DNA of 50,257 bases from a virus (Duplodnaviria > Caudoviricetes), in the IMG/VR virus record IMGVR_UViG_3300037470_000506, positions 1 to 50,257 of that record. One strand, given 5' to 3'. The first letter of the stretch is position 1, and every line of letters starts with the position of its first letter. Below are positions 1 to 46,617 of this stretch, one piece after another. The notes beneath the pieces were generated by a model that did no database searches, had not been told where the DNA came from, and saw nothing but the letters and a program-made list of their open reading frames with translations. The translations under genes and the position numbers were made by a program.

Positions 1-25
1 TCCGGCGTATCTGACCCGCGCTGCA
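1..25. repeat. Terminal direct overlap with 50233-50257 (circular assembly)
   Basis: TCCGGCGTATCTGACCCGCGCTGCA occurs at both ends; the RecT frame continues across the junction. Confidence 0.95.
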
Positions 26-18663: not shown

Positions 18664-18672
18664 CGCGGACCC

Positions 18673-19131
18673 TTACCTGCTCTTGGAGGCTGACGCCTTC
18701 TTCCGGGTAGCCCTCTTCGGAGCAGCCTTGGGCTTCGACTCCGGCTCGCTGTAGCGCGTCGCTGCGAGTGCGATCAGTGCCGCCTCTGGCGTGTCTGCCT
18801 CGATCTCGTACTCGGCGTATAGCGAGGCCAGCGTGACCTCGTCGAGCTTCGCGAGCGCTTCCGACAGCGGGACCACATCGGCGTCGGTCGTCAGCTGCAG
18901 CTCGCCGAACTCCTTGATCGCGGCGACATTCGGCTCCGGTAGCGGTTGGGTCGCCGGATGCGGCCCGACCGAGTCCCCGGTGGCATGGACCTTCGGCGCC
19001 CGGAACTTGTCCGGGAAGGCGCCCACCAGCGCGTCGTTCGCGCGGTACAGGTCGCCTGCCCGGACCAGCACCCGGATGCCGGCCAGGCGAGCCACGAATG
19101 GCCGCCTGGCCTGCAGGAGGTCAACCGTCAT
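18673..19131 (-). CDS. Post-capsid hypothetical protein with basic tail
   Basis: Follows the MCP gene; GDLYRANDALVGAFPDKF; Lys-rich end. Confidence 0.7.
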   Translation of the reverse strand: MTVDLLQARRPFVARLAGIRVLVRAGDLYRANDALVGAFPDKFRAPKVHATGDSVGPHPATQPLPEPNVAAIKEFGELQLTTDADVVPLSEALAKLDEVTLASLYAEYEIEADTPEAALIALAATRYSEPESKPKAAPKRATRKKASASKSR

Positions 19132-20597: not shown

Positions 20598-20599
20598 GG

Positions 20600-21742
20600 C
20601 TAGTGACTCCTCGTACGTGATGCGGACGCGCCCCACGCCGCGAGGCGTTCGGCCGGTGTCCTCTTGTCGGCCGCGATCGCCGCAAGCACGTGCTCGGGGA
20701 TCGCGTCGTCAGCGGGGTCCGCATCGCCCTCGTGGGCCTCCTCATGCGGCTCGACAGCCGCGTCGGGGTTGCCCTCGACAGCGGCGAGAAGGGAGTCGTC
20801 CTCGACGGCCGGCTCCAGTGAAATGGCGGCCAGGTTCAGCGGGCTCATCGCCGCGCGATTCGACCGGGAGGGGGCGGCGCGCTTCGCCAGGCGGCGGACA
20901 GTCGCCTCAAGGGTGGCGATGCCATCGACCATGCCGGCGGCCACGGCCTCGTCGGCCAGCAGCATCCGGCCACCGCCGAAGTCAGAAGTGACCTTGCTGG
21001 CGGCGATGCCGCGGCCCTTGGCCACGTCGTTGACGAACATCGAGCCGAAGCGGTTGACGACGCGCTGGATCTCGGCGTGCGCGTCCTCGGACAGCGGCTC
21101 GTGCGGGTTACCCTCAGCCTTGAACGGCGCGTTGTCCGAGGTGATGAGGGTGGTGGTGATGCCCTCGGCTTCCTCGGCGCGGCTCTGGTCGACGTGGCGC
21201 GCGATCGTCCCGATGGCACCGGCCATGCCCGAGGGGGCGATGAGGATCTCGTGGCACTGCGCGGCGATGTAGTAGGCGGCCGACGCGCACCAGTAGTTCA
21301 CGATGGCGGCGATGTGCTTGCCGCCCTTGGCGCGCACGTCGCGCAGGTAGGCCGCGAACTCGGCCAGCCCCTCCACCGAGCCGCCTGGCGAGTCGATGTC
21401 GAGCACGATGGCGTTGATGTCGGGATCGCCGAGCGCCTCGTCGATCGCCCCGCCGAGCTCCTCCAGGCTGGTGCCGCCGGAGAACGCGAGCATGAGGTTC
21501 ATGCGCGGGGCGATGATTCCGTACACCGGGATGACGGCCACGCCGCCGATGTCCTGACGCCCGATGCGCTCGCCGTTCGAGAGCGCCGCCGTCGCTACGC
21601 GGGCCTCGATCTCCTCGGGGGTGAGTTGCTCACCGCGGACGCGCTCCAGGACGACGCGCGCCATGATGTCCAACGTCTCGCGCTCGATCGCCCATGGGCG
21701 GTTGAACACCGTCTGCAGGACGTGCGCGTACCTGTGTCGCAT
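20600..21742 (-). CDS. Prohead protease, S49 (SppA/ClpP-like)
   Basis: LDIDSPGG, CASAAYYIA, GAIG, FKAEGNP. Confidence 0.92.
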   Translation of the reverse strand: MRHRYAHVLQTVFNRPWAIERETLDIMARVVLERVRGEQLTPEEIEARVATAALSNGERIGRQDIGGVAVIPVYGIIAPRMNLMLAFSGGTSLEELGGAIDEALGDPDINAIVLDIDSPGGSVEGLAEFAAYLRDVRAKGGKHIAAIVNYWCASAAYYIAAQCHEILIAPSGMAGAIGTIARHVDQSRAEEAEGITTTLITSDNAPFKAEGNPHEPLSEDAHAEIQRVVNRFGSMFVNDVAKGRGIAASKVTSDFGGGRMLLADEAVAAGMVDGIATLEATVRRLAKRAAPSRSNRAAMSPLNLAAISLEPAVEDDSLLAAVEGNPDAAVEPHEEAHEGDADPADDAIPEHVLAAIAADKRTPAERLAAWGASASRTRSH

Positions 21743-21784
21743 GCAACCACGCTCGGGGTCGCACGGGGTAGCAAGTCAAGAGCC

Positions 21785-21823
21785 CTTGCACATAGCAGCT
21801 ATGTGCAAGATCGCGCAAGATCG
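21785..21823. promoter_or_regulatory. Perfect inverted repeat and direct repeats upstream of the protease-capsid genes
   Basis: CTTGCACATAGC-A-GCTATGTGCAAG (21785-21809); GCAAGATCG twice. Confidence 0.55.
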
Positions 21824-21858
21824 TGTGCTAGTCGCGCGGGTTGAGCGTGGCGCGCCTT

Positions 21859-22101
21859 TTACGGCAGCGGCGGGATGTGCCTCGGTTCGGCGCTCGTCTC
21901 GGCGATGGGCACGACTTCCATCCGTAGATCGTCCTGATACGTCTCGACGTGCTCATGGCGCATCGGGAGCCAGCCGAACCGATCCGGCCGGGCGGGGAGA
22001 AGCATCCAGAAGTAGTCAGCACGGTTCGTGCAGTCGCGCATCTCGCACAGCGGCGCGACGCGCTCGATGCCGACCACGAGCGGCGGCAGATGGACGGTCA
22101 C
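21859..22101 (-). CDS. Hypothetical protein
   Basis: ORF inserted in the head module. Confidence 0.5.
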   Translation of the reverse strand: MTVHLPPLVVGIERVAPLCEMRDCTNRADYFWMLLPARPDRFGWLPMRHEHVETYQDDLRMEVVPIAETSAEPRHIPPLP

Positions 22102-22104
22102 GTC

Positions 22105-22308
22105 TTAGTGGTTCACCGGCCGGGCGCGATTGAGCCACGGATCGTAGACGTACCACACCTCGCAGACGCCGCACTCCCAGTTCTGCGGGAACGGGTAGTT
22201 CGGGCCACCGAGTGGAACCGCTCGGCGCCATTGCTCCGGATGCTCGCACTCGCGCCCCTCGGCCACGAGCATCATCCGGTATGCGTAGAGCGCCTCGGTC
22301 TCCGTCAC
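22105..22308 (-). CDS. Small Zn-ribbon-like protein
   Basis: CEH...CGVC. Confidence 0.55.
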   Translation of the reverse strand: MTETEALYAYRMMLVAEGRECEHPEQWRRAVPLGGPNYPFPQNWECGVCEVWYVYDPWLNRARPVNH

Positions 22309-22691
22309 GTCCGGTACCGATCTTCAGCCCACTCGGCGTGGCCGCCCTCGATGCGATCGCTCCGCCCATGGACGTTCGTCAGGATGTACCGCCCTGGCGG
22401 ATGCTTCGCTCGCGCCTGCTCCCGATACGGCTCGCGTTGATCCTCGGTCATGGTCGCCCACATTCCGGGCGGCACGAGTCCGGCGGCGATCGCCTCGATC
22501 AGCCCAGCATGCCACTCCGGCTTGAGCGCCGGCGCGTTCGGTCGGACGACCCAATTGTTCATGGGTCCGCCGATGAGCGTGATGTTCCCGGTCGGCGGCG
22601 CGTGAGTCAGCCCTGCTGGGCGTCGCGACGTTGCCTTCTCGATCGCCTTGGCGGTGGCGCGCTGGAGGTGGCGGCGGTCGGCGCGGTTCAT
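22305..22691 (-). CDS. Hypothetical protein
   Basis: MNRADRR start; LIGGPMN motif. Confidence 0.6.
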   Translation of the reverse strand: MNRADRRHLQRATAKAIEKATSRRPAGLTHAPPTGNITLIGGPMNNWVVRPNAPALKPEWHAGLIEAIAAGLVPPGMWATMTEDQREPYREQARAKHPPGRYILTNVHGRSDRIEGGHAEWAEDRYRT

Positions 22692-22885
22692 TCGGGGCCG
22701 GCCGATTCCAGCTCATGACAGGGCGAATACGGCCGCGATGAGTGGCACCAGCGCTGGCGCGGCTCGTCTCGGTAGATCGTTCCGTGGCAACGACGACAGT
22801 GCAGTCTCCGCTCGATCTCCCACAGCGACGGCCGTGCGGGACGTGGCGTGGTGATCTCGACCTCCATGCTACCGACGCGGGTCAT
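22688..22885 (-). CDS. Small Cys/His protein
   Basis: CRRC...CH...CH. Confidence 0.5.
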   Translation of the reverse strand: MTRVGSMEVEITTPRPARPSLWEIERRLHCRRCHGTIYRDEPRQRWCHSSRPYSPCHELESAGPE

Positions 22886-23103
22886 GCGACCGGCTCCGCG
22901 TTTTCGACGGCGTCGCGGATGACCTCGCAGAGCGCGAGTAGATGACTGTCCTCGCCTCGCAGGTAGATGACGCGCTGCTCCGGATCGGAAACCGATTCGA
23001 TGCCGACGATACCGCGGTTCACGAGGTCGCCCATCGTCCCGATCAGCCCCTCGACAGGCACCGCGAACGGGACCAGCACTGTTAGCTTCTCCATGCCCGT
23101 CAT
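22882..23103 (-). CDS. Hypothetical protein
   Basis: Coupled ORF after the acetyltransferase. Confidence 0.5.
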   Translation of the reverse strand: MTGMEKLTVLVPFAVPVEGLIGTMGDLVNRGIVGIESVSDPEQRVIYLRGEDSHLLALCEVIRDAVENAEPVA

Positions 23104-23104
23104 C

Positions 23105-23971
23105 CTACGCCTCCCAATCCACGTACTGCCCGCCGTCACCGGGCCTCGAATAGAAGCGCACCCCGTAGCGGCGCAACTGGTCGCGCAGGCGCTCGGATGC
23201 CTCGGTGACGGGGCCTGTGATCCGATGCTCGCCGAAGTCGAACACGGCGCCATGAGTGGCAGCGTGGACGGGCGAGATGGATATGGCAGCGGCTGCTTCA
23301 TCATCGCCGGGGTAGTCACAGACGAAGGCGGTCCGCCACTGATCGAAGGCGGCGTGATCGAAGGGTCGCGGGTAAGCCCGCTCGCGCAGCACCTTGGCCG
23401 GAATGCCGCCTGCCAGCGACCCGGGCGGGATGTCGCGGGTGACGACCGATCCGACGCCGACCACGACATCCGAGCCGATGCTGACGCCCGGATTGACCAC
23501 GGCGCCTGGCAGCCACACGCGATCGCCGAGCGTCACCTCGCCGAAGGCGACCGGGAAGCCGTCGAGAGCCGAGAGGTACGCGCCGTGGGTGTAGAGCTTC
23601 GTCCCGGTGCCGAGCCCGACTTCGCTACCGATGCGGACTGGGCGCGCGGTGTTGATGAACGAGTCGCGGCCCATGTGGAGGAAGTGGCCGGCGCGCAGCG
23701 ACGACTGGCGCTCGAAGCACGAGCCCCCGCCGATGATGGCGCCTGGCAGGATCCACGCCTCCTGGCCGATCTCGATGTCTCGGCCCTCGATGGTCACGTT
23801 CTCATGGACCGTGGAGTAGGCGCCGATGGCCAGGTGGCCCGGTCGCGCGATCTTGATGCGGACGTTCGGCCCGATGGTCACCTGTTCGCCGAGCCACACG
23901 CTGCCCTCGATCTCGGCGGACGGGTGGACCTCGGCGCCCGCGGCCGCATTGACGATGGAGCGGATGCTCAC
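23105..23971 (-). CDS. Left-handed beta-helix (hexapeptide repeat) acyl/acetyltransferase
   Basis: VTLGDRVWL...VNPGVSIGSDVVVGVGSVVTRDIP...GGIPAKVLR; YTH catalytic-type His. Confidence 0.9.
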   Translation of the reverse strand: MSIRSIVNAAAGAEVHPSAEIEGSVWLGEQVTIGPNVRIKIARPGHLAIGAYSTVHENVTIEGRDIEIGQEAWILPGAIIGGGSCFERQSSLRAGHFLHMGRDSFINTARPVRIGSEVGLGTGTKLYTHGAYLSALDGFPVAFGEVTLGDRVWLPGAVVNPGVSIGSDVVVGVGSVVTRDIPPGSLAGGIPAKVLRERAYPRPFDHAAFDQWRTAFVCDYPGDDEAAAAISISPVHAATHGAVFDFGEHRITGPVTEASERLRDQLRRYGVRFYSRPGDGGQYVDWEA

Positions 23972-24267
23972 GATGCCCGCTCCACAGGGGAGCCACATTC
24001 GTCGCACACTTGGATCGGGACCCATCCGGGGCAGGCGTAGGCGGTATGTGTCGAGCCGTGGACGTGATCCGGGTCGGCCGCGATGGGTCGCTCTCGTCGG
24101 TATTTGGCGTCAGCGACGGCATCTCGACGCTGCGAGCACGCGCAGTCGAGGCAGTACCCATGACGACGCGGATTGTCGTACCAGGGATGGCGGCCGTAGA
24201 CGTGGCCACACTCGCACATCTTCGCGTCGAAGTCGGCCTGCGTGCGTCGAGGTCGAACGACGCTCAT
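23968..24267 (-). CDS. Cys/His-rich protein, paralog 1
   Basis: CECGH...H...CLDCAC...CPG...CDEC; closely similar to 40484-40765. Confidence 0.75.
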   Translation of the reverse strand: MSVVRPRRTQADFDAKMCECGHVYGRHPWYDNPRRHGYCLDCACSQRRDAVADAKYRRERPIAADPDHVHGSTHTAYACPGWVPIQVCDECGSPVERAS

Positions 24268-24494
24268 GCCGGGTCCAGCCGGATCGGGAATCCTCCGCGC
24301 TCACTCTCGTAACCCTGTTCTCGGTTGAACGCGCGCTGCTCCTCGGCCATCGCCGCGTCCCATTCGGGGGTGTGGACGATGCCCCGGTAACGCTCGGCGT
24401 TGTATGTCGCGAGGCGGTCCCAGCGATGCTCGCGGTCCCACCGCTCCCACCATTCGCGGTTCCGCCGCTCGCGCCAGTCGTCTAGCCACCTCAT
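24264..24494 (-). CDS. Hypothetical Trp/Arg-rich protein
   Basis: RLATYNAERYRGIVHTPEW. Confidence 0.6.
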   Translation of the reverse strand: MRWLDDWRERRNREWWERWDREHRWDRLATYNAERYRGIVHTPEWDAAMAEEQRAFNREQGYESERGGFPIRLDPA

Positions 24495-24742
24495 GCGTCG
24501 CTGCCTTCGGTCGGGAGCGTGAATGGGGCGGCTCGGTGCCACGGCTCAGAGACATCGATGGCCGCCGCCGCCGCCTCGCGCGCATGTTCGTCGGAGCAAT
24601 AGTGGCTCGGAGGATCGCGATAGACGACCACCCATCCTTCGGGCAATCCCTGCGCAGCCTCAGTGCCGATGGTCGTGGCCGATGCGTCACAAAGGTGGCG
24701 CTCACAGTGCCAGCGGCGAATCTCCATTCGTTGATATGCCAT
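24491..24742 (-). CDS. Small Cys-containing protein
   Basis: CERHLC...PEGW...YCSDEH. Confidence 0.6.
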   Translation of the reverse strand: MAYQRMEIRRWHCERHLCDASATTIGTEAAQGLPEGWVVVYRDPPSHYCSDEHAREAAAAAIDVSEPWHRAAPFTLPTEGSDA

Positions 24743-24764
24743 GTCGTCTCTCCTTTCGGTCTGA

Positions 24765-25397
24765 CTACCAGTGGGCGCGGATCACCTCGAAGGCCTCCGC
24801 TGCCCGGACGCCCGCCTGCACGCCGCGTACGGTCGCCGTGCCGCGGATGAACGCCGGGTCCATGTAGATGCGGTGCGCCTGGCTGCGATAGGTCGCCGCG
24901 TGGCGCACCTTGAGCTCGACGTGCTCCTCCTCCAGCCGGACGTACCCCGCGAACGTCGCCGCGCGGACCGTGTTCATCGCCAGCTCGTAACCCAAGATCG
25001 TCGAGTGCTTGAACGCCCGCACACCTTCCGCGCTGACGGTCGAGTGGTCCTGGTGCACGTCGCTGCCGGTCGGCAGCAGCACGAGGTCATAGTTGCGGTC
25101 GCGGATGTCGATCAGCACGTCGAGCACCTGCTGACGGTGAGTCGGGAAGAAGCGATTGGGCACGTCGTGCAGCGACAGGCGCCCGGGGTCGATGCCGAGC
25201 AGCGCGGTGGCCGCCTGCCACTCGGCGATCAGGTCGGCCGCGCTGAAGCCGTCGGGGATCAGGTCCGCGCACGTGCTGAACGTCACAACATCGACCTCGG
25301 CGCCCGCGGCCGTCAGACGCGCCAGCGTCCCCGCGCAGCCGAACTCGTCGTCAGGGTGCGCACCGAGGAAGAGGACCCGGCGGAAGGCGGTAATCAT
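24765..25397 (-). CDS. PIG-L/LmbE-family N-acetylsugar deacetylase
   Basis: AHPDDE, DVHQDH, YRSQ, AEAF motifs. Confidence 0.92.
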   Translation of the reverse strand: MITAFRRVLFLGAHPDDEFGCAGTLARLTAAGAEVDVVTFSTCADLIPDGFSAADLIAEWQAATALLGIDPGRLSLHDVPNRFFPTHRQQVLDVLIDIRDRNYDLVLLPTGSDVHQDHSTVSAEGVRAFKHSTILGYELAMNTVRAATFAGYVRLEEEHVELKVRHAATYRSQAHRIYMDPAFIRGTATVRGVQAGVRAAEAFEVIRAHW

Positions 25398-27147: not shown

Positions 27148-27299
27148 GCTCGGGCCCGATCGATGTCGACGAACAGCAGGGCGCCGAGCAGCAGGCCAGC
27201 GGTGATCAGCGCGGCCGGTGGGTAGATGAGCGCGATGCCCACCACGATCAGCGCCAGGCTGGCCGCAAACAGGATGGCGGCGATGGTACGGCGGCTCAC
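27144..27299 (-). CDS. Small membrane protein between terminase and portal
   Basis: LIVVGIALIYPPAALITAGLLL. Confidence 0.65.
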   Translation of the reverse strand: MSRRTIAAILFAASLALIVVGIALIYPPAALITAGLLLGALLFVDIDRARA

Positions 27300-28813
27300 G
27301 ACCCGCCTCCGAACAGAACGAAGGGTGTGGGCGCCTCTTCCTCGGCGGGGAGTGCGTAGAAGGCGTTCACGAAGCTGGCCGCATCGAGCGCGTCGATCAC
27401 GCGCCGCTCCTGGTCGGCGAGGCGCCCCTCGACCGGCCGATCGAAGCGCACGTCGCCCCCCGGCAGCATGCGCGCGATCGCGTTGAGCACGTGCTGCGCC
27501 AAGCCGGGGTCGCCAGTGTGATGCAGCCAGTCGTTGCGCAGCGCCTCCATGAAGGCGTCGTAGTTCTCCACGTACTGCGTGTTCGACTGCGGCCAGTCGA
27601 TGACCTCGGCGCCGATCTCGTCCTCGATCCAGGCCGCGATGTCCGCGGCGCCCGAGATGTCCATGACGACGGTGTGGATCGGGTAGACCGTGTGGATCGC
27701 CTTCAGCGCCGTCTTGATCTCGTCGGGGTGCAGCGAGTTCCCGTCGCGCGGCGGGGTGATGATCGTTGCCGGCCCGAACAACCGATCCTTGGGGTCCTTC
27801 ATCCAGAAGGGCACGGCGGACGTCGTGTCCCACTTCCACGCCACGTCCAGGCCGAGCGCAATCGCCTGCCCCTTCGGGATGCCGGACTCCGACTTGGCGG
27901 CCGCCCACTCGGCCTCGGTGACGGCCGACTTGCCGCCGCGGGTGGCGATGTTGCACGCGAAGCGCTTCCAGTGGGCGAGCGTCATGGTCGGCGACGCGAA
28001 CTTGGTGGCCAGCGTCTGGGGCGTGATGCGGCGCGAGGGGTTGGCCGCCTTGACCACCTCCATGTCCTCGACGTCCGCACCCTCGGGCACGGCATACTCG
28101 TGCATGACGACATTGCCCGAGACGTAGCGCATACCACCGGTCGGGAGCCGGGTGACCTCGGTGGCCGTCTCGCGGATCCGCTTCCGGGTGACCTCGAACT
28201 CGGTCCCCGGCTCGCCGGCAGTCGAGATCAGCGCGATCTGGCCGCCGCGCTTGCGCAGCTTGCCGGTCCACGTCCGGTACAGCTTCATGTTCTTCATGCG
28301 GTGCGGCTCGTCGATGATGCCGAGCGTCGGGATCACGCCGTCACCCGTGTCATCGTCGGCGGCGAACACCTGGATACGGCCGCCGCGGAAGTGGTTGATG
28401 CGACGGAAGCCCTCCAGGCACAGGAAGCGGGGGACCGTCGTCTTGCGCTTGCCCTTGGCCTTCAGGATCGCCGACTCCCGCTCTTCGTGGAGCGCCGGGG
28501 TGCGGATGACGAAGCCCTCACCCTGCTGGTAGAGGATCACCGCCTGGTCGCGCGACGACGCGGCCACCGGGACCGCAGCCCGATCCCGATGCTCCGCGTG
28601 GTACAGCGCCAGGTCGGCGAGCAGCGTCGTCTTGCCGTTCTCTTCGGGAACCACGAGCCAGCACTCGGGGTAGCCGGCGAAGAGATCGGCGGCCCACAGC
28701 TCCTGGAACTCGTCGAGGATGAACGGCTCCAGGTTGTCGAGCGTCATGGCCGCCGACCAGGCGCGGAAGTGGTCGACGGTGAAGGGCTCGGAGATCGGAG
28801 CGGCGAGAACCAT
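27296..28813 (-). CDS. terL: Terminase large subunit
   Basis: Walker A PEENGKTT, Walker B IIDEPH, ISTAG, nuclease GLDVA..D and IDALDA. Confidence 0.93.
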   Translation of the reverse strand: MVLAAPISEPFTVDHFRAWSAAMTLDNLEPFILDEFQELWAADLFAGYPECWLVVPEENGKTTLLADLALYHAEHRDRAAVPVAASSRDQAVILYQQGEGFVIRTPALHEERESAILKAKGKRKTTVPRFLCLEGFRRINHFRGGRIQVFAADDDTGDGVIPTLGIIDEPHRMKNMKLYRTWTGKLRKRGGQIALISTAGEPGTEFEVTRKRIRETATEVTRLPTGGMRYVSGNVVMHEYAVPEGADVEDMEVVKAANPSRRITPQTLATKFASPTMTLAHWKRFACNIATRGGKSAVTEAEWAAAKSESGIPKGQAIALGLDVAWKWDTTSAVPFWMKDPKDRLFGPATIITPPRDGNSLHPDEIKTALKAIHTVYPIHTVVMDISGAADIAAWIEDEIGAEVIDWPQSNTQYVENYDAFMEALRNDWLHHTGDPGLAQHVLNAIARMLPGGDVRFDRPVEGRLADQERRVIDALDAASFVNAFYALPAEEEAPTPFVLFGGGS

Positions 28814-33652: not shown

Positions 33653-34843
33653 TCAGCCCTTGACAGTGCCGATCGGCCGCAGTCGCTCGACGATCTCGAC
33701 CAGATCGGTACTCGCCTCCATGACGCTCTCGATGTCCTTATAGGCCCGCGGAGCCTCGTCGACCACCTCACTGGCATCGGGTGTGTAGACCCGCGTTCCG
33801 GCCGCGGTCAACTCGGCGAGCATCTCGTCAACGCCGGAGTACATGCGCTTCGCCGCGGCGCGGCTCATCGCCCGTCCCGCGCCGTGCTGGCACGTCTCGA
33901 ACGAGTCGGGGTTGCCGAGTCCCCGCGCCCAGTACGAGCCAGTGCCCATGCTGCCCGGGATCAGCACGTCCTCACCCGCTCGAGCGCGGACCGCGCCCTT
34001 GCGGTGGACGATGCCGTTCGTGCCCCGATGGTTCTCCCAGGCCGCGTAGTTGTGGTGGCAGTCCACGATGACCTGCCAGGCGCCGATGCTCGTGTGCTCG
34101 ACGAGCGCCTCGAAGACGCGCGCCAGCATCCGCGCTCGGTTGTGCTCGGCGAACCTCAGCGCGTACTCCATCGACTCCCAGTAGCCGCGGGCGAGATCGT
34201 CGTCCCACGGCAGGTACGCCAGCTCCTTGTCGGGGAGCGCCGAGAACCAGCGCTGGTTGAGGGCCAGCGCCGCCTTGTGGAACGTGTCGCAGATGCGCTT
34301 GCCGAGCGACCGGCTGCCAGAGTGGAGCATGACGTAGACGTGGCCGTCTTCATCCGTCTGGAGCTCGATGAAGTGGTTACCGCCGCCGAGCGTCCCGATC
34401 TGGTGCTGGACCTTCGAGATCCACGCGGGCTCGATCCACGCCGGCCACGTCGCGAGCTCGTCGGGCCACTCCTGCGGCGTCGCGTGCTCCGCCTGCGGAC
34501 CGTTGCCCACCGGTACGCCGGCGAGGATCGCGGCGCCGATCGCATCCATGCGTTCGACGGCTTCCTCGACGGTGAGGTCGGTGCGAGCCAGGACGACACC
34601 ACAGCCGATGTCGACGCCGATCGCGTAGGGCACCACCGCGCGATCCGCGAAGAGGACGCCACCGATGGGCATCCCATAGCCCTGATGGGCGTCGGGCATC
34701 AGCGAGACGTGGCTGATGACGAACGGCAGCCGCGCCAGGTTGTCCGCCTGATCGAGCGCACCCCGCTCGGCGGCACGTGCCCAGTTCTTGACGGGCTTCC
34801 CATTCGCCGGGACGTGGACCTCCGGTCCGATTGCGAGCGCCAT
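33653..34843 (-). CDS. rtcB: RtcB RNA ligase
   Basis: MPDAHQGYGMPIG, GVDIGCG, GTLGGGNHFIE, HSGSR, HHNY, HRKGA, IPGSMG, HGAGR, DEAPRAYK. Confidence 0.96.
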   Translation of the reverse strand: MALAIGPEVHVPANGKPVKNWARAAERGALDQADNLARLPFVISHVSLMPDAHQGYGMPIGGVLFADRAVVPYAIGVDIGCGVVLARTDLTVEEAVERMDAIGAAILAGVPVGNGPQAEHATPQEWPDELATWPAWIEPAWISKVQHQIGTLGGGNHFIELQTDEDGHVYVMLHSGSRSLGKRICDTFHKAALALNQRWFSALPDKELAYLPWDDDLARGYWESMEYALRFAEHNRARMLARVFEALVEHTSIGAWQVIVDCHHNYAAWENHRGTNGIVHRKGAVRARAGEDVLIPGSMGTGSYWARGLGNPDSFETCQHGAGRAMSRAAAKRMYSGVDEMLAELTAAGTRVYTPDASEVVDEAPRAYKDIESVMEASTDLVEIVERLRPIGTVKG

Positions 34844-34869: not shown

Positions 34870-35145
34870 TTACCCGGCGATCGCCAGATTCAGCGGCCCC
34901 GGCTCATCCTTCATCCGTCGCGGACGATGGCCGAGCTCGAAGCGAACCGGCTTGCCGTGCTCACGTTCGACCTCCATCTCCAGCCAGTCGACGAACTCGG
35001 CGGGCGTGAAGCGGTTGAGTTCGCAGCCGCAGTCCTCGGGGTCGTGCGAGCAGATCTGTGCCATCAGATGACGCGCCGCGGCACGGAGGTCAGAGAGCAC
35101 CTCCGGCGTGAAGGTCGCCAGGAACTCGCGGCGTGGCTGGGTCAC
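34870..35145 (-). CDS. Hypothetical protein
   Basis: ORF upstream of rtcB. Confidence 0.55.
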   Translation of the reverse strand: MTQPRREFLATFTPEVLSDLRAAARHLMAQICSHDPEDCGCELNRFTPAEFVDWLEMEVEREHGKPVRFELGHRPRRMKDEPGPLNLAIAG

Positions 35146-35173
35146 GCGCGGCTAGCCCTCCTCTCCGACGCGC

Positions 35174-35920
35174 TCATCCATCGGGTCGCTCCTCCTTACT
35201 GGTGAGCCGAAGGTGCTGCTCGATGAGGTCGGCGGCATCTTGTAGCTGCACCATCGTTCCATCGGAGAGGGTGACGGTGCAGATGTGGTTCTCATCCAGC
35301 GAAGGCGGGGTGGCGCGAGCCTCGGCAATGGCGGTGCGGGCCGCTCGCAGGGCAGTCGAGATGATGAGGTCCGGATCATGGTCCGGTTCGGCGGGAACCC
35401 GCATCTCCCATCGAAGCCTGCCGGAACAGAGATCATCGACGGCCTTCTCGGCTCGCTCGATAAGCCGCAGCGCTTCGTCGCTCGGCTCCGCGAATGCGGG
35501 TGGGCGGTGGCGGTTGCATTCGTTGTAGCCGTTCTGTTGCGCCGAGATGCAGTTGTAGCAACTCGGCTCCCCGGAGTGCTCACCGGATGCCGAGCCGGGC
35601 TCCGGGGTGAACGGATGGGAGGTCATGCGCGATCGTCCGAGAGGCGGGCGAGGTTGGTGGCGTAGCGGGATGGCCTTCTGGATGAGCGGCTCGCCTACCG
35701 CCAGCGGGGTCTCCTGATCGACCACCCGCAGGGCTGCCCGGACGATTTGCTCCACATCCAGCGAAGGCGGGGTGGCGCGAGCCTCGGCAATGGCGAGGAT
35801 GGCGCGCAGAAGGTCCGGTCGGCGGGTCTGCCACATTCCGTCATTCGGCTCGTGGGCCGCGAGAAGCTCGCGTCCTGCCTCGGTGCTCGGCTCCTCGGAT
35901 GCGGGTGGGCGGTCAGTCAT
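35174..35920 (-). CDS. Repeat-module protein (probably two cassettes fused by a frameshift near 35668)
   Basis: Contains RPPASEEPSTE, RPPAFAEPS and two AEARATPPSLD motifs. Confidence 0.65.
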   Translation of the reverse strand: MTDRPPASEEPSTEAGRELLAAHEPNDGMWQTRRPDLLRAILAIAEARATPPSLDVEQIVRAALRVVDQETPLAVGEPLIQKAIPLRHQPRPPLGRSRMTSHPFTPEPGSASGEHSGEPSCYNCISAQQNGYNECNRHRPPAFAEPSDEALRLIERAEKAVDDLCSGRLRWEMRVPAEPDHDPDLIISTALRAARTAIAEARATPPSLDENHICTVTLSDGTMVQLQDAADLIEQHLRLTSKEERPDG

Positions 35921-36416
35921 GGTTCTGCTCCGTTAGGCGGGCGAGGATGTGTTCGGCCAGCATTCGTGGAGCGATAACGCCGTTCTTGCCGGGGATTGAG
36001 TCGGCCAGAATCGCCGTCAGCACATCCAGCGAAGGCGGGGTGGCGCGGGCCTCGATGGAACGTGTGAAATCGAGCAGCGCGGCTACGTCCTCCACAGACA
36101 CCTTGCTAAGCCGTCCACGTTCTCGTTGTAGATGGCGCATTCCTTCGAGCACAAGTGCAGCCTCGGTGCTCGGCTCCTCTATGTTGATGCCAAGTACTCG
36201 GGCGTTATGCGCCAGAACGGCCTCAACGATGCGGGGGTCTTCGTAGTTCGCATCGCCCACTCGCCCCGGGCTCGGCTCCCCGGATGCGGGTGGGCGGTGG
36301 TCTATGCCAATTTCGCCATCTTCTTTGAAGTGGTAGACGTTGGTTCCGCCGCATCCTTCTTCCGGGCAAGGCTCCGTGCTCGGCTCCCCGGATGCGGGTG
36401 GGCGGTCAGTGGTCAT
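35913..36416 (-). CDS. Repeat-module protein
   Basis: Three A motifs and one B motif in 167 aa. Confidence 0.7.
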   Translation of the reverse strand: MTTDRPPASGEPSTEPCPEEGCGGTNVYHFKEDGEIGIDHRPPASGEPSPGRVGDANYEDPRIVEAVLAHNARVLGINIEEPSTEAALVLEGMRHLQRERGRLSKVSVEDVAALLDFTRSIEARATPPSLDVLTAILADSIPGKNGVIAPRMLAEHILARLTEQNHD

Positions 36417-36550
36417 CGGCTCTTGCCTCGCTTCTCAATGAACTCGCAGCCCTCGCAGCCCTTGACGACGGTCGCATGACGCCACAGGTGCAGGATTACG
36501 AATCCCAACAGGCTCGGCTCCCCGGATGCGGGTGGGCGGGGGTCAGTCAT
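36413..36550 (-). CDS. Repeat-module micro-protein (45 aa)
   Basis: Manually translated MTDPRPPASGEPSLLGFVILHLWRHATVVKGCEGCEFIEKRGKSR. Confidence 0.55.
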   Translation of the reverse strand: MTDPRPPASGEPSLLGFVILHLWRHATVVKGCEGCEFIEKRGKSR

Positions 36551-36653
36551 GCGTGTTCTCCAATCCAAGAACTTCCTGTGAGCATCGGCGAGCAGCGATC
36601 TCGCACCAGCGCTCGATGTGCGACTCGACCTTGAAGCCGCCGCGCATCTTCAT
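36543..36653 (-). CDS. Micro-protein (36 aa)
   Basis: MKMRGGFKVESH...; ATGA overlap upstream, stop inside repeat A. Confidence 0.45.
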   Translation of the reverse strand: MKMRGGFKVESHIERWCEIAARRCSQEVLGLENTHD

Positions 36654-36808
36654 GGCTTCTCCTCCCCGAAGTAGATGAGGCCGTGGAAGTCGCCGTGGCC
36701 CTTCGGCTGGTTGCACAGTCCGGCTATGTCGCCAAAGCCGTTGTAGACGGGGTGGTTGCACGTCTCCTCGGTCGGCTCCTCGGATGCGGGTGGGCGGTCA
36801 GTGGTCAT
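36650..36808 (-). CDS. Repeat-module micro-protein with C..C...GH..H motif
   Basis: MTTDRPPASEEPTEETCNHP...CNQPKGHGDFH. Confidence 0.6.
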   Translation of the reverse strand: MTTDRPPASEEPTEETCNHPVYNGFGDIAGLCNQPKGHGDFHGLIYFGEEKP

Positions 36809-37493
36809 CGGTGGATTGCAGCGCGGCATGGAGTCGTCGCACAAGTGCTTCATAGGTGGCTATGGCGATCGGTCCGTTGGCTCCGGTCGGCCACGTCACC
36901 ATCGCGCTGAGGAGAGGGCGTTCTCGTTCCAGCGACTCGCGCGACGCGGCCTCGGCTTCGATCTTTCTGATGGCACGAGCCATCTCAGGGTCCGGTCCGC
37001 CCTCGTCCTCCCAGTGTTCGAGGACATAGCGGCCTGTCGGGGTCGAGGGGACGTCGGTCTCCTCTTCGAGCGGCTCGACGGGAAGCGGGATGCTGCCCTC
37101 CCAGCCGGGCATCGTCACGAACGTCCGGCCGCCAGACCGACACAGGTACGACTTGTCGGCCTCGTCGCAGCCCTGCGGACACAGGCCGCGATAGACCGGG
37201 TAGGTGGGCAGGTACTGCTCGTCGTGGTTGTGGGGCCACGGGTGCCACGACTCGGCGTGCCCGATCTCGTCCTCGTCGGTGAGCGCGTCACGGATCACGT
37301 CTAGCGAAGGCGGCGATGGCGCGGCCTGGGCTTCGATGGCGAGGATGCTGGCGGTCGCTACGGCTAGACTGTCGCGTCGCTCCTGTTCATTAGCGATGCT
37401 GTTGGTTAGCCACGCCGCGAGCATGTGACGGTGCTCGCGCCCCGCCTCGGTGCTCGGCTCCCCGGATGCGGGTGGGCGGATGGATTCGGTCAT
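36798..37493 (-). CDS. Repeat-module protein
   Basis: MTESIRPPASGEPSTEAGR...ILAIEAQAAPSPPSLDV. Confidence 0.7.
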   Translation of the reverse strand: MTESIRPPASGEPSTEAGREHRHMLAAWLTNSIANEQERRDSLAVATASILAIEAQAAPSPPSLDVIRDALTDEDEIGHAESWHPWPHNHDEQYLPTYPVYRGLCPQGCDEADKSYLCRSGGRTFVTMPGWEGSIPLPVEPLEEETDVPSTPTGRYVLEHWEDEGGPDPEMARAIRKIEAEAASRESLERERPLLSAMVTWPTGANGPIAIATYEALVRRLHAALQSTDDH

Positions 37494-37804
37494 CGGTTCC
37501 ACTCCCACGGCTGCTCCGCTAGGTCACACCACTTGCTGCTTCCTAGAGGTGCCTGATGCGTGCTACACCACACGTCGGAAGTCTGCCGCCGATCAGCGTC
37601 CGGCTCACACTTCGCCACGTAGTCGATGTCCCCGACGAGGCCGGCGAGGGAGCGGAGGGCCGTCACGATCCCTCGGTTGATGTACGGCTCACCGTGAGAG
37701 TCGTCCGGGCGGGTGATGTACTTGCCGCGCAGGGCCAGCCTAAGCGCCGCAACATTCACGGTCTGCTCTGGCGGCTCCCCGGATGCGGACGGGCTGGGGT
37801 CCAT
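37490..37804 (-). CDS. First ORF of the repeat array
   Basis: MDPSPSASGEP...; GGAG RBS. Confidence 0.6.
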   Translation of the reverse strand: MDPSPSASGEPPEQTVNVAALRLALRGKYITRPDDSHGEPYINRGIVTALRSLAGLVGDIDYVAKCEPDADRRQTSDVWCSTHQAPLGSSKWCDLAEQPWEWNR

Positions 37805-37824
37805 CGGGTCGTCTCCGGTCTGAC

Positions 37825-38012
37825 TAGCCCTTATTCCAGCCCCTATCCGGTCCGTCACCATGCGCCCCATCCGGGCCTAAGCGGCCCATCCTGTGAGGCA
37901 CCGGGACCCACGGATTGCCTTGCGCCGAATCCGGTATGCGGTACCAATCTCGCCCTCCTGAGCACGATTCTACTCCTCTCAGGCTCCAGACAGCCCGTAT
38001 TACAGCCCTTAT
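37825..38012. mobile_element. attP: tRNA-3'-like core flanked by arm-type repeats
   Basis: Core CGAATCCGGTATGCGGTACCA (37926-37946); tandem AGCCCnTAT pairs with 12-bp period at 37826/37838 and 37992/38004; immediately downstream of the integrase. Confidence 0.75.
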
Positions 38013-39160
38013 GCACTGCTGATGCCGCCCAGAAGCGCCTCCAGCGCGCGCGCCGCATCTGCCTGCATGGTCGGCAGAACATGGCTGTACGTGTTGAGCG
38101 TCATCTCGACGGTCGTGTGCCCGAGCGCCTCGCTCACGACCTTGGCGTTGACGCCGGCGGCGAGCATCAGGGTCGCGTAGGTGTGGCGGATGTCATGGAA
38201 CCGCCGAGCGGGCAGCCCGAGCGAGGCGAGCAGCGGCCGGAAGCGGCGCTCGGTGAAGTGCTCCCAGTCGAGCGGCTGCCCATCGGGTCCGGTGAAGATC
38301 AGGTCATCGTCGGTCAGCCGATGACCGATGCGGAGCAGTGCTTCGGCGCGCGCGAGTCGATAGCCGCGCAGCATGGCGGCCGTCGCGGCCGTGACCGCGA
38401 TGCCGCGCATCTTCGCGGTCTTCGGCTCATCCACCATCCAGCGGCCCTTGTGGCGGTAGAGCTCGCGTCGGACGTGGAGCACGGCACCGGCTTCGTCCAG
38501 GTCAGACCAGCGCAGCCCGGCCAGCTCACCGAGGCGCATGCCCGTGCGCAGCGCCACGACGATGAGCACCTCGGACTCCTTGCCCGCGATGCCCGCGGTG
38601 AGCGCCTGCACCTGCTGGGGAGTGAACGGTCGGATCTCGGTCTTCGTCTTGCGCGGCTTCTTGATCTTCGATGAGGGGTTGACGGCGATCAGGCGCCACG
38701 CGACGGCCTGCTCGAGAGCGGAATGCAAGACGGCGTGCAGGTAGTGAACGCTGGCCGGACTGGCGCCGGCATCCATACGATCGGCGTACAGGCTGGCGAT
38801 GTCCTGCGCGCTCAACCTGGAGAGCTTCTTCTTCCCGAGCTCGGGGATGAGGTAGCGATTCGTCAGACCGGCATACCGCTCGTAGCTCCGGGGCCGCAGC
38901 GAGAGGCGCGCCACGTCGAGCAGCCAGCGGGTCATGAACTGCTCGACGGTCTGGCGGTCGCCCGGAGTCATGCCCTTGGCGACCTCAGCGAGCGCGTCAT
39001 CGCGCGCCTTCGCAGCCTCCTTGGGACTGCGGCCGTAGACCGAGTACCGCTTGTGCGTCCGCGGATCGGTGTAGCGCGCTTGGAAGGAACCGTCTGGCAA
39101 TTGCCGCGGAGCGGAGCCAGAGCCCTTGTCGCGGCGAATGTCGCCCATCGAGTCCATCAT
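38009..39160 (-). CDS. int: Tyrosine integrase
   Basis: TGMRLGELAGLRW, FHDIRHTYAT, LGH, TLNTYSH. Confidence 0.96.
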   Translation of the reverse strand: MMDSMGDIRRDKGSGSAPRQLPDGSFQARYTDPRTHKRYSVYGRSPKEAAKARDDALAEVAKGMTPGDRQTVEQFMTRWLLDVARLSLRPRSYERYAGLTNRYLIPELGKKKLSRLSAQDIASLYADRMDAGASPASVHYLHAVLHSALEQAVAWRLIAVNPSSKIKKPRKTKTEIRPFTPQQVQALTAGIAGKESEVLIVVALRTGMRLGELAGLRWSDLDEAGAVLHVRRELYRHKGRWMVDEPKTAKMRGIAVTAATAAMLRGYRLARAEALLRIGHRLTDDDLIFTGPDGQPLDWEHFTERRFRPLLASLGLPARRFHDIRHTYATLMLAAGVNAKVVSEALGHTTVEMTLNTYSHVLPTMQADAARALEALLGGISSA

Positions 39161-42923: not shown

Positions 42924-44095
42924 GCCGGCGCTCCGTGCTGCTCGTTGGCGGCGAGCCAGTCGCGCAGCTCGTCGACCTGCTCGGGAACCTCGCCCTTGCG
43001 GCCGCCGCGGATCCAGACACCGACCGCTCGGCGGATGAGGCTCTGTCGCTCCCGCTCCTCCGGCGACTGCGCGGCCGGCGGCGCATGGCGGCGCTGATCG
43101 GCCTCAGCCTGGCGCCGTTCACGATCGCGCTCCTCGGCCCTCGATCGCTCGGCCAACCGGCTCTCGGCCATGCGCTTGAGGTCCCACGGCAGCACCTTGC
43201 CGCGCCGCTCAAGACAGGCTGCGAAAGCCGGAGCGATCTCGGTCTGCACCCAATCCGCCGAGTAGCGGCGATCCATGTCCTCCCAGGCAGCGACGTACTC
43301 CCGATCGCCGAGCCACTTGCCGGAGTCGAACAGCTGACGGCAGGCGAGCGTCGCCGAGTCGGATTCGGATGGCAGCTCATGGCTTGCCAGCATTGCGTCT
43401 GCTGCTGGCTCTGCTGCTGGCTCTGCTTCTGCCTCTGTATCTGCCTCTGCTCTGCTCTGGCGCGCGTGGGCTTTCGTTACAGAAATTTCGGTAACGGCCG
43501 TTACATCGTTACCAACTGACGGGATAGGGCGAAGCCGCATGCCCGCCTGTTCGAGTGTCCTCCCGCCCTTCGCGGCATTGCACGAGTAGCAGGACGTGAC
43601 GAGGTTCTCGGTATCGTCGGTCCCTCCTTGCACCTTCGGGATGACGTGGTCAGGCACCAACGCCTTCCGGTCGGGAGTCGCCCCGCAATATCGGCAGGTA
43701 TAGGCGTCACGCTCGAAGATCGGGGACCTCATCCGAGCTCGGTGAAGACGAACCCGCTCTCGCACCTGATCCGGCTCATCCGATGGGTACCGCTGGCGAT
43801 CGTGATCGGCCAGGTCGTGGATCGCGATCCCGCCCGCGCCCAGGTCGTCGAGGAGCCGGATGCCGATGAGCCGGTCGAGGAGCCGGGAGCACTTCGAGCG
43901 GCTCGTCTCACGCCGCCGCAGGACGCGCAGGGCATCCTCGCGGTCAACGAACGCATCGCCGCCCATGACCTCGACCGCGGCGCGCAGGTCGGTCCAGGCC
44001 CCGAGCTCGGCGTGGTTCAGGTCGCGGAACTTCTCGTGCCGCCGCAGCTGTACGGCGTAGACCCGGAACCAGCGGCCACGCGGATCAGCGGCCAT
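42920..44095 (-). CDS. Replication initiator-like protein with internal HNH domain
   Basis: N-terminal WFRV...HEKF; IFERDAYTCRYCG...DHVIP...GG.D...NLVTSCYSCN..KG; low-complexity linker. Confidence 0.7.
   Translation of the reverse strand: MAADPRGRWFRVYAVQLRRHEKFRDLNHAELGAWTDLRAAVEVMGGDAFVDREDALRVLRRRETSRSKCSRLLDRLIGIRLLDDLGAGGIAIHDLADHDRQRYPSDEPDQVRERVRLHRARMRSPIFERDAYTCRYCGATPDRKALVPDHVIPKVQGGTDDTENLVTSCYSCNAAKGGRTLEQAGMRLRPIPSVGNDVTAVTEISVTKAHARQSRAEADTEAEAEPAAEPAADAMLASHELPSESDSATLACRQLFDSGKWLGDREYVAAWEDMDRRYSADWVQTEIAPAFAACLERRGKVLPWDLKRMAESRLAERSRAEERDRERRQAEADQRRHAPPAAQSPEERERQSLIRRAVGVWIRGGRKGEVPEQVDELRDWLAANEQHGAPA
43399..43512. repeat. Candidate intragenic replication origin
   Basis: CGTTAC at 43475, 43499, 43507 and inverted at 43491 around AGAAATTT; adjacent TCTGC-type repeat run 43399-43459. 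Confidence 0.45.
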
Positions 44096-46617
44096 CAGGC
44101 AACCTCCGCCGGATCGATAGCCGCCAGGTCGAACAGGGTCGGCATAGAGGCATGGCGCGCCGCGGCCTCCACGTAGGCGACGCCATCGGTGAAGTACGTC
44201 GGGTTGAGCTCGACGCCGATCGCCTGGCGCCCGAGCTTGAGCGCGCAGTAGGGCACTGTCATCAGGCCCCCGAACGGGTCGTAGACCGTGTCGCCCTCGT
44301 TGCTGAACTGGACGATCAGCCGGTCGACGATGTCGAACTGGAGCGGGCACAGGTGGTACGCCTGGCCCTTCTGGTACTGGTTGAGGTTGAGGGTCCGCAT
44401 GCGCGCCACGTCGGTCCACACGTCGGGATGCCATGACGGCGGCTGGAGCAGCATGAAGGTGACGGGCAGCCGCCCCTTCGCCTCGAGCGCTTCGCCTAGC
44501 GCGACGTGCGCCTCGAAGTCGTATAGCTCCGTGAGGTTGTGGTCACGGAAGAGGCGGAAGATCTTGTCGTGCGCGATGCCTTCGAGATCCTCGGGCGTGA
44601 GCGGTCGGTTGCCGTTGCTACGCGCGAAGCCGTGCGCATCGATCTGCCAGCGCGAGCGGGTGTAGGTGGCCTTGCTCTTCACGACCGGCACGTCCGCGTA
44701 GCCGTTGGATCGATCGGTGGGCGGCTTCCGGAAGAGCAGGATGTACTCGGGCAGCCCGGCGCCCATCTTCGTCCCGTCCTTGGTCTGCTCCGTCCAGCCG
44801 AGGCGATAGGTCTGGTTGTTCTCACGGACGACGTCGGTGACGATCGTCTTCATGCCCAGGAAGGCGAAGCCGTGGCCGGTGTAGTGGGTGATCGCCTCGG
44901 CGTGGAACGGCTGCACCGTCTGGAAGCCGTAGCCGGTCATGCCGCCAGGCACCACCCGATCCTTGACGTGGATAGCCGCGACCCGCCCGGGCTGGAGCAC
45001 GCGCAACAGCTCGGGGGTCAGGTAGTCCATCTGTTCCCAGAAGTGGGCGTTGTCCTCGGTATGGCCGAAGTCGTTGTAGCTCGGCGTGTACTCGTACTGC
45101 GTCGCGAACGGGATGCTGGTGACGATCAGCCCGACCGATGCGGCCGCCATGCGCGCTGTTTCTTCGACGGCGTCGGCGTTGACGATCAGGTAGCCCTCGC
45201 CGGCGACCTCGCGACGCTCGACGCCGATCGACCGCCGCAACCCAGACGCGATCGCTTCGCGTGCCAGGCCGTGCTCGGTGATGATGGCGCCCATGCGGGC
45301 GACCATCTGCTCGTGCTGCTCCCACTTCCGCTCGAGGCTCCCCCGGATCTCGCGCTCGGCCTCGGTGTAGATCAGGTCGATCCGGACCGGCTCGTCCTGG
45401 AGGAAGCGGTGGATGCGATGCACCGCCTGGATGAAGTCGCTGAACTTGAAGCCGATGCCGACGAAGATCGCGCGATGGCAGTGGCGCTGGAAGTTGCAGC
45501 CTGAGCCGAGCATGACTGGCTTCCCGGCCAGGATCCGGTAGTCGCCGTCGCTGAACCCGATGACCCGGCGCTCGCGCTCGTCGAGATCCTGCGTGCCCCA
45601 CACCGTGACGGCCTCGGGCAGCGAGGCCTCGATGGCGCGGCGCTCATCCTCCAGGTCGTGCCACAGCAGGAAGTGATCGTCGGGGTCCGCGTCGACCAGC
45701 TCGCACATCGTGGCGACCCGCGCCTCGAGGCTGGTCCGCTTCTCGCGCGACGCCTCCTGCACGCCGAGCGCAGCGTTCCGGAACATCCGCCCGCGGCCGT
45801 GCCGATCGAAGTCGCCCTCGCTGGTGGATGGCAGCTCATGCCAGCGCACATCGAGCGCGGGCAAGACGTAGCCCTCGTCGGAGTACCCGAGGTCGGAGGG
45901 CTTCTGAATGAACAGGGCCCACGAGGCGACCCACATCCAGAAGTCGTGCTCCATGTGCGGCAGCAGGGTGAGCTTGTCGGCCTTCGTGCTGTCGCGCTTG
46001 AAGAATCGAGTCTTCGCCTGGCCGACATCCATGATGTCGAGGAAGGCGGCGTAGGCCAGCAGCTCGATGTACTCGTTCGGCGACGGGGTGGCCGTGGCCA
46101 CGAAGCGGTACCGGGCGGTGCCCTCGTACAGGCGCATGAACTCCCGGAAGGTCTTCGTGCCACCGAAGCCGCGCAGGATGGCCGCCTCGTCGAGGCTCAC
46201 GACGGTGAAGGCCCGAGGGTCCAGCTTCCCCTCGCGCACCGATTCGTAGTTCGTCAGGTAGATGCCGTCGCCGGCGGCCTCCTCGTTGGTGCGGATGAAG
46301 GTTGGCGCTAGCCCGAGCATCCGGGCGTCGCGCGTGAACTCCTGCCGCACGCCGAGCGGGAGCACGATGAGACCCTTGCCGCCCTCATGGGCGAGAACGA
46401 GGCGCACGATCTCCAGCTGAATGAGCGTCTTGCCCAGGCCGAACGACGCGAACACCGCGCGCCGGCCGCCGCGGATCGCCCACACCACGGCGTCCCGCTG
46501 GTGCGGCTTGAGGATCGGGTTGACGTCGGACGGGTCCACCTCCATGCCGCTCGCGGTGGCGAGCTCGGCCTTCGCCTCCAGAAACGCGGCGTAATCGGTG
46601 CGCTCGGCAACGGTCAC
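44095..46617 (-). CDS. SF2 (SNF2-like) helicase fused to an N4/N6 DNA methyltransferase
   Basis: FGLGKT, LDEA, TATPSPN, QAVHRIHRF; IVTSIPF, HLCP, VYDPFGG...GVEL. Confidence 0.88.
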   Translation of the reverse strand: MTVAERTDYAAFLEAKAELATASGMEVDPSDVNPILKPHQRDAVVWAIRGGRRAVFASFGLGKTLIQLEIVRLVLAHEGGKGLIVLPLGVRQEFTRDARMLGLAPTFIRTNEEAAGDGIYLTNYESVREGKLDPRAFTVVSLDEAAILRGFGGTKTFREFMRLYEGTARYRFVATATPSPNEYIELLAYAAFLDIMDVGQAKTRFFKRDSTKADKLTLLPHMEHDFWMWVASWALFIQKPSDLGYSDEGYVLPALDVRWHELPSTSEGDFDRHGRGRMFRNAALGVQEASREKRTSLEARVATMCELVDADPDDHFLLWHDLEDERRAIEASLPEAVTVWGTQDLDERERRVIGFSDGDYRILAGKPVMLGSGCNFQRHCHRAIFVGIGFKFSDFIQAVHRIHRFLQDEPVRIDLIYTEAEREIRGSLERKWEQHEQMVARMGAIITEHGLAREAIASGLRRSIGVERREVAGEGYLIVNADAVEETARMAAASVGLIVTSIPFATQYEYTPSYNDFGHTEDNAHFWEQMDYLTPELLRVLQPGRVAAIHVKDRVVPGGMTGYGFQTVQPFHAEAITHYTGHGFAFLGMKTIVTDVVRENNQTYRLGWTEQTKDGTKMGAGLPEYILLFRKPPTDRSNGYADVPVVKSKATYTRSRWQIDAHGFARSNGNRPLTPEDLEGIAHDKIFRLFRDHNLTELYDFEAHVALGEALEAKGRLPVTFMLLQPPSWHPDVWTDVARMRTLNLNQYQKGQAYHLCPLQFDIVDRLIVQFSNEGDTVYDPFGGLMTVPYCALKLGRQAIGVELNPTYFTDGVAYVEAAARHASMPTLFDLAAIDPAEVA

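Follow-up and report, generated by a model that had tools for sequence, protein, structure and literature searches.

The virus record IMGVR_UViG_3300037470_000506, analysed here over its whole length of 50,257 bp (the window), has one and the same short stretch at both of its ends, so the phage genome is circular with a length of 50,257 bp. It carries a temperate-phage gene set: a terminase, a major head protein, a tyrosine integrase, an excisionase-like protein, a RecE-like exonuclease and RtcB. Adjoining the phage attachment site (attP) is an array of seven overlapping open reading frames (ORFs) on the minus strand, running from 37804 to 35174, in which variable segments are joined by short repeated linkers, A, B and C. 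An earlier reading, made from the sequence alone, had described seven coupled ORFs of repeat-joined segments. The seven overlapping ORFs are indeed there, but one of them (ORF4) contains no repeat and the last consists of two fused genes (Table 1).

A 28-bp form of repeat A matched the array seven times at up to three mismatches, always within 35480–37479, with no match expected from 100 shuffles. Together with a degenerate eighth copy (six mismatches) and partial copies at about 35561–35614 and 36148–36179, this agrees with the sequence-only count of about ten full or partial copies. Six copies stand a few codons after a start codon, whereas the other two lie inside genes, in frame. Of the four copies of repeat B, those at 35293 and 35755 are identical over 41 bp, as had been proposed. 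The third motif of the sequence-only reading, LARL, is present as well, but it is the opening of a longer gene-end block, C, in which a Shine-Dalgarno-like GGAG or AAGGAGGAG lies shortly before the next ATG; one copy, in gene 7a, is out of frame. Exact repeats in the array measure 25–41 bp and include pairs of 41, 31, 31, 30, 29, 29 and 28 bp. A simple scan found no promoter-like and no terminator-like sites within the array.

Table 1. Features of the array, of attP and of neighbouring genes in the window. The letters x, y, z and x' stand for variable pieces.
Feature	Positions	Strand	Remark
ORF1, 104 aa, degenerate A and unique segment	37490–37804	-	
ORF2, 231 aa, A-x-B(degenerate)-long y	36798–37493	-	
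ORF3, 52 aa, A and Cys/His segment	36650–36808	-	
ORF4, 36 aa, without repeat	36543–36653	-	
ORF5, 45 aa, A and segment	36413–36550	-	
ORF6, 167 aa, A-z-A-x-(partial A)-x'-B-y-C	35913–36416	-	
Gene 7a, A-x-B-y-C, frameshifted near 35670, fused to 7b	35623–35920	-	
Gene 7b, partial A-z-A-x-B-y-C	35174–35626	-	x is a widespread helix-loop-helix module
Repeat A	37452–37479	-	28-mer match
Repeat A	36770–36797	-	28-mer match
Repeat A	36512–36539	-	28-mer match
Repeat A	36378–36405	-	28-mer match
Repeat A, internal, in frame	36270–36297	-	28-mer match
Repeat A	35885–35912	-	28-mer match
Repeat A, internal, in frame	35480–35507	-	28-mer match
Repeat A, degenerate (eighth copy)	37769–37796	-	6 mismatches
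Repeat B	35293–35333	-	41 bp identical to 35755–35795
Repeat B	35755–35795	-	41 bp identical to 35293–35333
Repeat B	36021–36053	-	
Repeat B, degenerate	37299–37334	-	
Block C (LARL...)	35913–35945	-	GGAG ahead of next ATG
Block C of gene 7a	35623–35652	-	not in frame of called ORF
Block C, RLTSKEERP type	35174–35210	-	with AAGGAGGAG
RecT-family annealase, candidate engine	3–1193	-	PF03837, E 1e-23; runs past contig end
YqaJ/RecE-like exonuclease	1507–2547	-	PF09588, E 2e-21
Tyrosine integrase (int)	38009–39160	-	annotation and Pfam
RtcB RNA ligase	33653–34843	-	directly downstream of array, ahead of lysis-type and packaging genes
attP region, arm-type direct repeats	37826–38012	+	two pairs (37826–37846; 37992–38012)
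attP core, identical to 3' end of tRNA-Glu(CTC) of Chloroflexota metagenome-assembled genome	37926–37952	+	27/27 in G005

The last ORF as called (248 aa, 35174–35920) has its LARL copy out of frame, and the same module runs intact through LARL in the homologues P0025, P0045 and P0071. We therefore place a frameshift near 35670 (35660–35680) that fuses genes 7a and 7b. The frameshifted sequence is identical in a contig of the probable source run, a sediment metagenome. Contigs of that run tile 35100–37900 with no differences or gaps among the 8 pieces listed (16 further ones exist); their agreement with the window, which speaks against the misassembly that the sequence-only reading had allowed for, is not independent evidence. 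In the array region these contigs break only at repeats. Two of them depart from the window at A copies into unrelated flanks (loose ends 35855–35914), a hint that donors may co-occur in the sample.

A profile built from eight A-x-B-y-C sequences was run over the 7,995 best candidates of 42–293 aa and gave 99 proteins at E ≤ 10, of which two belong to the window itself. The other 97 came from ENA, JGI, NCBI and Logan assemblies and, as told by size, from about 87 distinct contigs; B is present in 84, A in 70 and two copies of B in 3. Nine contigs seem to carry more than one relative, which suggests that arrays exist elsewhere. Piece x' of ORF6 is 83% identical over 30 aa to P0002/P0003. At the DNA level, a scan of JGI metagenomes revealed two short contigs, L043 and L044, with three A copies each, different fillings and the same codons; L044 additionally has two B and two C.

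Comparison of the relatives revealed how their pieces are combined. The 70 proteins with both A and B (4 from the window) fall into 59 x clusters and 60 y clusters; 17 pairs have a common x, 12 a common y and none both. One x occurs with five different y, and one y with three or four different x. Among the 84 B-bearing non-window proteins (3,486 pairs), at least 15 aa are common only to the left of B in 18 pairs, only to the right in 21 and on both sides in none. In 33 of these 39 pairs identity stops exactly at the edge of B, as judged at the protein level. A three-way case illustrates this: P0187 reads z1-x1-y1, P0206 x1-y2 and P0214 z1-x2-y2.

This one-sided sharing with breaks at the edge of B shows exchange at linkers at the protein level. 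The shared sides are 84–100% identical (median 99%), so exchange outpaces point mutation. At least two A copies occur in 18 of the 97 relatives, as stacked A-z-A units. Thus, the anatomy start-A-x-B-y-C, the re-pairing of x and y with a switch at B, stacked units and the presence of pieces in unrelated genes are all observed. These pairings support the sequence-only proposal that the repeats are exchange points for the swapping and stacking of modules, and relatives do not simply repeat the same segments in the same order.

The pieces themselves come from a wider pool, since they are also found in unrelated or stand-alone genes. A stand-alone small Cys-rich gene of the window (3456–3767) has 67% identity with the y piece of P0225, and one module occupies the x slot of two proteins and the y slot of two others. 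The x module of gene 7b (35327–35479) is a 50-residue helix-loop-helix with the motif DLC.G..RW.M.VPA.PD.DPDL. It gave 456 matches at E ≤ 0.001 among 50% representatives, and two of the 141 listed matches with the core motif carry A or B. No match to it was found in Pfam, PHROG or PDB. Foldseek returned nothing at E ≤ 0.001 in PDB or BFVD (the best hit was an unnamed viral protein, 1.6e-3), and ESM Atlas only unnamed clusters, under 0.9. Judged by these matches, the module is a widespread domain without a name.

In an alignment of 66 sequences of this module, 5 columns are invariant and another 10 nearly so. In the AlphaFold model of the 7b A-x-B part made from it, the helix-loop-helix has a predicted local distance difference test score (pLDDT) of 96–98, and linkers A and B have 62 and 67. 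On this prediction, the linkers would be flexible hinges that connect helical modules. The model of P0161 was poor (pLDDT 66).

We also studied the codons of the linkers, in 13 A copies from three contigs and 5 B copies; the counts exclude the degenerate copies of A (37769) and B (37299) as well as two C-type look-alikes in L044. CCA is kept in 13/13 A copies and GCA in 10/10 copies with the same residue (Ala), whereas 14 core genes use each at 6%. This confirms the retention of uncommon codons that the sequence-only reading had noted. The retention, however, points to shared ancestry or homogenisation and not to selection on DNA. Distinct variants of A number 6 nonsynonymous versus 2 synonymous (16.7 versus 7.3 sites), near the neutral expectation, and those of B 3 versus 2 (21 versus 9 sites). 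The shared rare codons would fit recent common descent or homogenisation by recombination, and show neither DNA selection nor protein-level constraint. A one-step codon-neighbour test on the linker variants gave 19/24 (15.5 expected) and 19/26 (15.9 expected). Second codon positions hold 5 of the 8 distinct variants of A, and the alternative frame PPTRIRGAE would render these silent. It was rejected as the coding frame, because at gene starts it comes after the upstream stop.

The variable segments stand out in composition in part. Their GC content at third codon positions (GC3) ranges over 0.58–0.90, and in 7 of 14 it is lower than in any of 17 small control ORFs, whose minimum is 0.78. The lower GC noted from the sequence alone therefore holds for half of the segments, but not for the other seven. 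Codon adaptation is lower in 9 of 14 (codon adaptation index 0.29–0.52). Both measures are in line with mixed origin. The linkers come in two dialects, V-S-TSKEE and A-A-SASGE, with B8 and C concordant in 44/45 cases (lineages not independent), and the array of the window mixes both. In L044 (1–60 and 840–880), one variant of C, RLSASGEQ, is similar at the DNA level to the core of A; an old gene-end junction may thus have given rise to A.

Taken together, these results make it probable that the array represents a phage small-gene family in which short in-frame DNA linkers are the places where variable pieces reassort between phages, with RecT-type homologous recombination as the likely means. 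The Red-like system invoked by the sequence-only reading was found by Pfam as RecT and YqaJ. A minimal pairing segment of 23–27 bp is given for Red-beta and of 31–34 bp for RecA, and RecT-type enzymes act on short, diverged homology (PMC3945230). The exact repeats of the array reach the Red-beta minimum, which fits a RecT-type engine, and from this we infer that RecT may act on the A, B and C repeats.

In the proposed mechanism, RecT and YqaJ would pair two copies of A, of B or of the C/start junction over 25–41 bp of identity during co-infection or passage through a lysogen. Equal crossover between linkers would swap x or y, and unequal crossover would stack, delete or fuse units. With linker copies in one frame and the ribosome-binding site of the next gene inside C, the products would stay translatable. 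Such traffic would homogenise the linkers and so explain their shared rare codons. In the circular phage, the array might be expressed by reading through int and attP towards rtcB; a simple scan found no terminator-like site between int and the array/rtcB stretch. The products may be small early accessory proteins that try out novel pairings of modules on the host, with counter-defence or host takeover as their probable role. RtcB has a role in RNA repair. The guess of counter-defence draws on that role and on the position and size of the array genes.

Several points weigh against this interpretation. One array gene is frameshifted, and the degenerate B copy (37299–37334) differs also at synonymous sites, the degenerate copies standing outside the codon count. 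The DNA evidence consists of three contigs, of which L044 is a near-duplicate of one that the protein set already represents (P0157, P0191). The relatives were selected by linker similarity and their lineages are not independent. The 90% clustering of the protein database hides pairs with both sides in common; just 6 of the 99 clusters contain several members, hence this bias looks small, though it is real. No alternative joints were seen among the source-run contigs, which cannot reveal rare variants. No member has a functional annotation, and host RecA could serve for the 31–41 bp copies.

A bolder form of the reassortment model, which we hold tentatively, is an evolved protein diversification resembling exon shuffling. 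The in-frame socket start-A-x-B-y-C-ribosome-binding site would recruit folded mini-domains, recombine faster than point mutation and be kept by selection in host-phage conflict. If this is true, the 59 x and 60 y types put thousands of combinations within reach. As for the library of small accessory proteins suggested from the sequence alone, many pairings do exist across sequences, but their generation within one phage population was not observed.

Among the rival explanations, neutral churn is a live one, although we regard it as unlikely. In this case the linkers would persist through recombining, and most products would be functionless passengers. The frameshift in the array could be read in this way, all the more as P0003 and P0194 also look frameshifted, and so could the several short segments with poor codon adaptation and no known domains. 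However, frames, starts and ribosome-binding sites are retained in most members, and the invariant columns and confident predicted fold of the 7b module speak against passengers.

It is less probable still that A, B and C are primarily conserved peptide motifs (hinges, or tags for targeting or binding) in a family of paralogues, with recombination as a by-product; this view is compatible with reassortment at the linkers. Every copy is indeed in one frame, and at most linker positions a single residue is found in more than 90% of 85–86 copies, which is partly so by construction. Two diverged members, L233 and L254, keep the frame EPxT..G..L / ILAIEAEA / LD..L with little DNA repeat. The variant counts of A and B, on the other hand, give no sign of protein-level purifying selection (with small numbers), rare codons are retained across three contigs, and the linkers are low-confidence coil in both structure models.

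Integrons and shufflons are arrays of variable units beside a tyrosine recombinase. A dedicated site-specific system of this kind, with the adjacent integrase or another recombinase cutting at A, B and C, seems very improbable here, even though the array of this phage abuts attP and int, the breakpoints at B are sharp and a 10-base look-alike is common to the attP core and A. That likeness is equalled by 15% of 2,787 random genome 27-mers. The arm-type repeats are confined to attP, with none in the array, and A and B lack a stable or conserved hairpin (z +1.0 and +1.3). Variants within B accompany x in some cases and y in others, so that crossover points seem unfixed, although mutation could also produce this pattern. 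No integrase was seen beside the L043 array within 1,254 bp, nor in L233, where the diverged member lies in a replication-region context. Unlike integrons and shufflons, the array has neither palindromic attC-like sites nor inverted orientation, and its units are parts of genes.

The least credible explanation is an artefact of chimeric joins at repeats, here and in the homologues: source-run contigs break at repeats of at least 31 bp, which leaves the order between those repeats unproven, and B can exceed the assembly k-mer in the short metagenome contigs of the homologues, so chimeras could inflate the pair count, but the region is covered at an even depth of 5.3–9.3 by listed pieces that show no differences, and the 59 x and 60 y types exist whatever the joins, with matches from several assembly sources.

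Reassortment at linkers has known counterparts. Short conserved boundary or linker sequences have been proposed for the joints of phage mosaics, and an acquired segment flanked by 29-bp direct repeats is described (PMC3029335). That paper notes that at most mosaic joints no conserved boundary sequence can be found. Like such sequences, the linkers provide short homology between unrelated modules across genomes that general recombination may use, and their breakpoints fall at conserved sequence in the 33 of 39 pairs counted above at the protein level. Boundary sequences as described there are mostly at gene borders and rare, whereas the three linkers are intragenic, tandem and fixed in frame, with dozens of fillings.

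In T4-type phages, PeSLs are intergenic promoter-terminator cassettes of about 100 bp that move whole genes and form mini-circles (PMC2839356). They share with the array repeated conserved DNA elements in a variable region, at which recombination inserts, deletes or replaces ORFans in these phages. The linkers of the array differ in being 27–45 bp long and coding, without promoter or terminator consensus or a stable hairpin, and in moving parts of genes. Thus, the array is an intragenic, in-frame version of boundary-sequence or PeSL shuffling.

The Ea22/Ead early proteins of lambdoid phages, encoded near int/xis, are mosaic within the gene, with variable domains and a short conserved C-terminal tag (PMC10834534, PMC7093339). 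The array resembles them in its small accessory genes near an integrase and in mosaicism inside the gene. It differs in having no Ead/Ea22 or DUF551 match and no long coiled coil, and in being tandem, with explicit DNA linkers, beyond attP. Relaxed recombination by Rad52-like proteins (Red-beta, RecT) has in common with it RecT, an exonuclease and fitting homology lengths; the homologies studied in the available part of PMC3945230 are longer and diverged, and are not repeated in-frame linkers. Compared with a diversity-generating retroelement, the anatomy is reversed, with constant repeats and unrelated fillings (no reverse transcriptase search was made). A literature search that covered few subscription journals and no supplements yielded no description of the family or of an in-frame three-linker array, and a term search of the available text of PMC4503421 and PMC9836094 gave nothing relevant.

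It is worth stressing that joints, alternative modules and a candidate recombinase are found here in one family, in which breakpoints can be counted. The array therefore bears on the role of boundary sequences, which had stayed open because they cannot be found at most joints (PMC3029335). It also offers a concrete route by which phages could make many small orphan genes, and the 30–41 bp linkers with RecT form a testable substrate.

Four matches to the arm-type repeat AGCCCBTAT lie between int and the array, flanking the attP core (0.22 expected); from their position beside a tyrosine integrase they are probably its arm sites. A pattern scan with the core recovered mostly Limnocylindria-type and other Chloroflexota genomes and some other taxa (among 80 of 120 loci), and tRNA-Glu(CTC) was found in 12/12 loci checked. 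The match of the core to the 3' end of this tRNA points to a Limnocylindria-type bacterium of the Chloroflexota as the likely host. In the integrated state, the prophage end distal to int would carry the array, as had been read from the sequence alone. Its position next to attP, claimed earlier, is confirmed here by the arm repeats and tRNA-Glu core but is not general, as L043 and L233 show. No title found in the literature search deals with gene variability in phages of these uncultured bacteria, and the array would give a first look at it. A look-up among public runs showed the phage sequence in one run, the sediment metagenome mentioned above, and listed no RNA datasets with it.

Repeat A was absent from all 401 genomes of the likely host order at up to two mismatches, so it is not a host repeat in the genomes searched. 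A profile search of the likely host class matched 21 of 401 genomes, mostly weakly; the one inspected, L233, is a diverged member with the same frame in a replication-type region. Scans of IMG/VR DNA found neither B nor degenerate A, protein-pattern scans of IMG/VR confirmed no relative, and degenerate A had no match in GTDB genomes. A 17-mer of A was rejected as a probe, as its 42 IMG/VR matches were each single and unrelated. INPHARED phages gave no match by blastn or tblastn, and neither A nor B was present in the stretches searched of 59 terminase relatives and 9 integrase relatives. For the array ORFs and 103 relatives, Pfam and PHROG returned nothing above the curated cut-off. A search of 10 whole records of such relatives brought up a second diverged member, L254, in one of them, a terminase relative from IMG/VR.

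Other repeats were observed at some of these loci. In L233, a phage-like stretch of genome G504, a different direct repeat of 23–31 bp (1627–1758 and 2517–2547) stands at gene junctions around the diverged member. The terminase relative L100 has five in-frame 30-bp repeats of the AEVERLR type (2031–2653), perhaps another linker array.

Elsewhere in the window, ARAGORN called a tRNA-Arg within the terminase gene (27298–27395), which is probably spurious. Positions 44095–46617 encode an 840-aa protein in which a helicase-like part is fused to a DNA methyltransferase, according to PHROG matches. Genes that, judged by eye, look sugar-modifying (acyltransferase-like, deacetylase-like and glycosyltransferase-like) lie among the head genes at 17671–25397.

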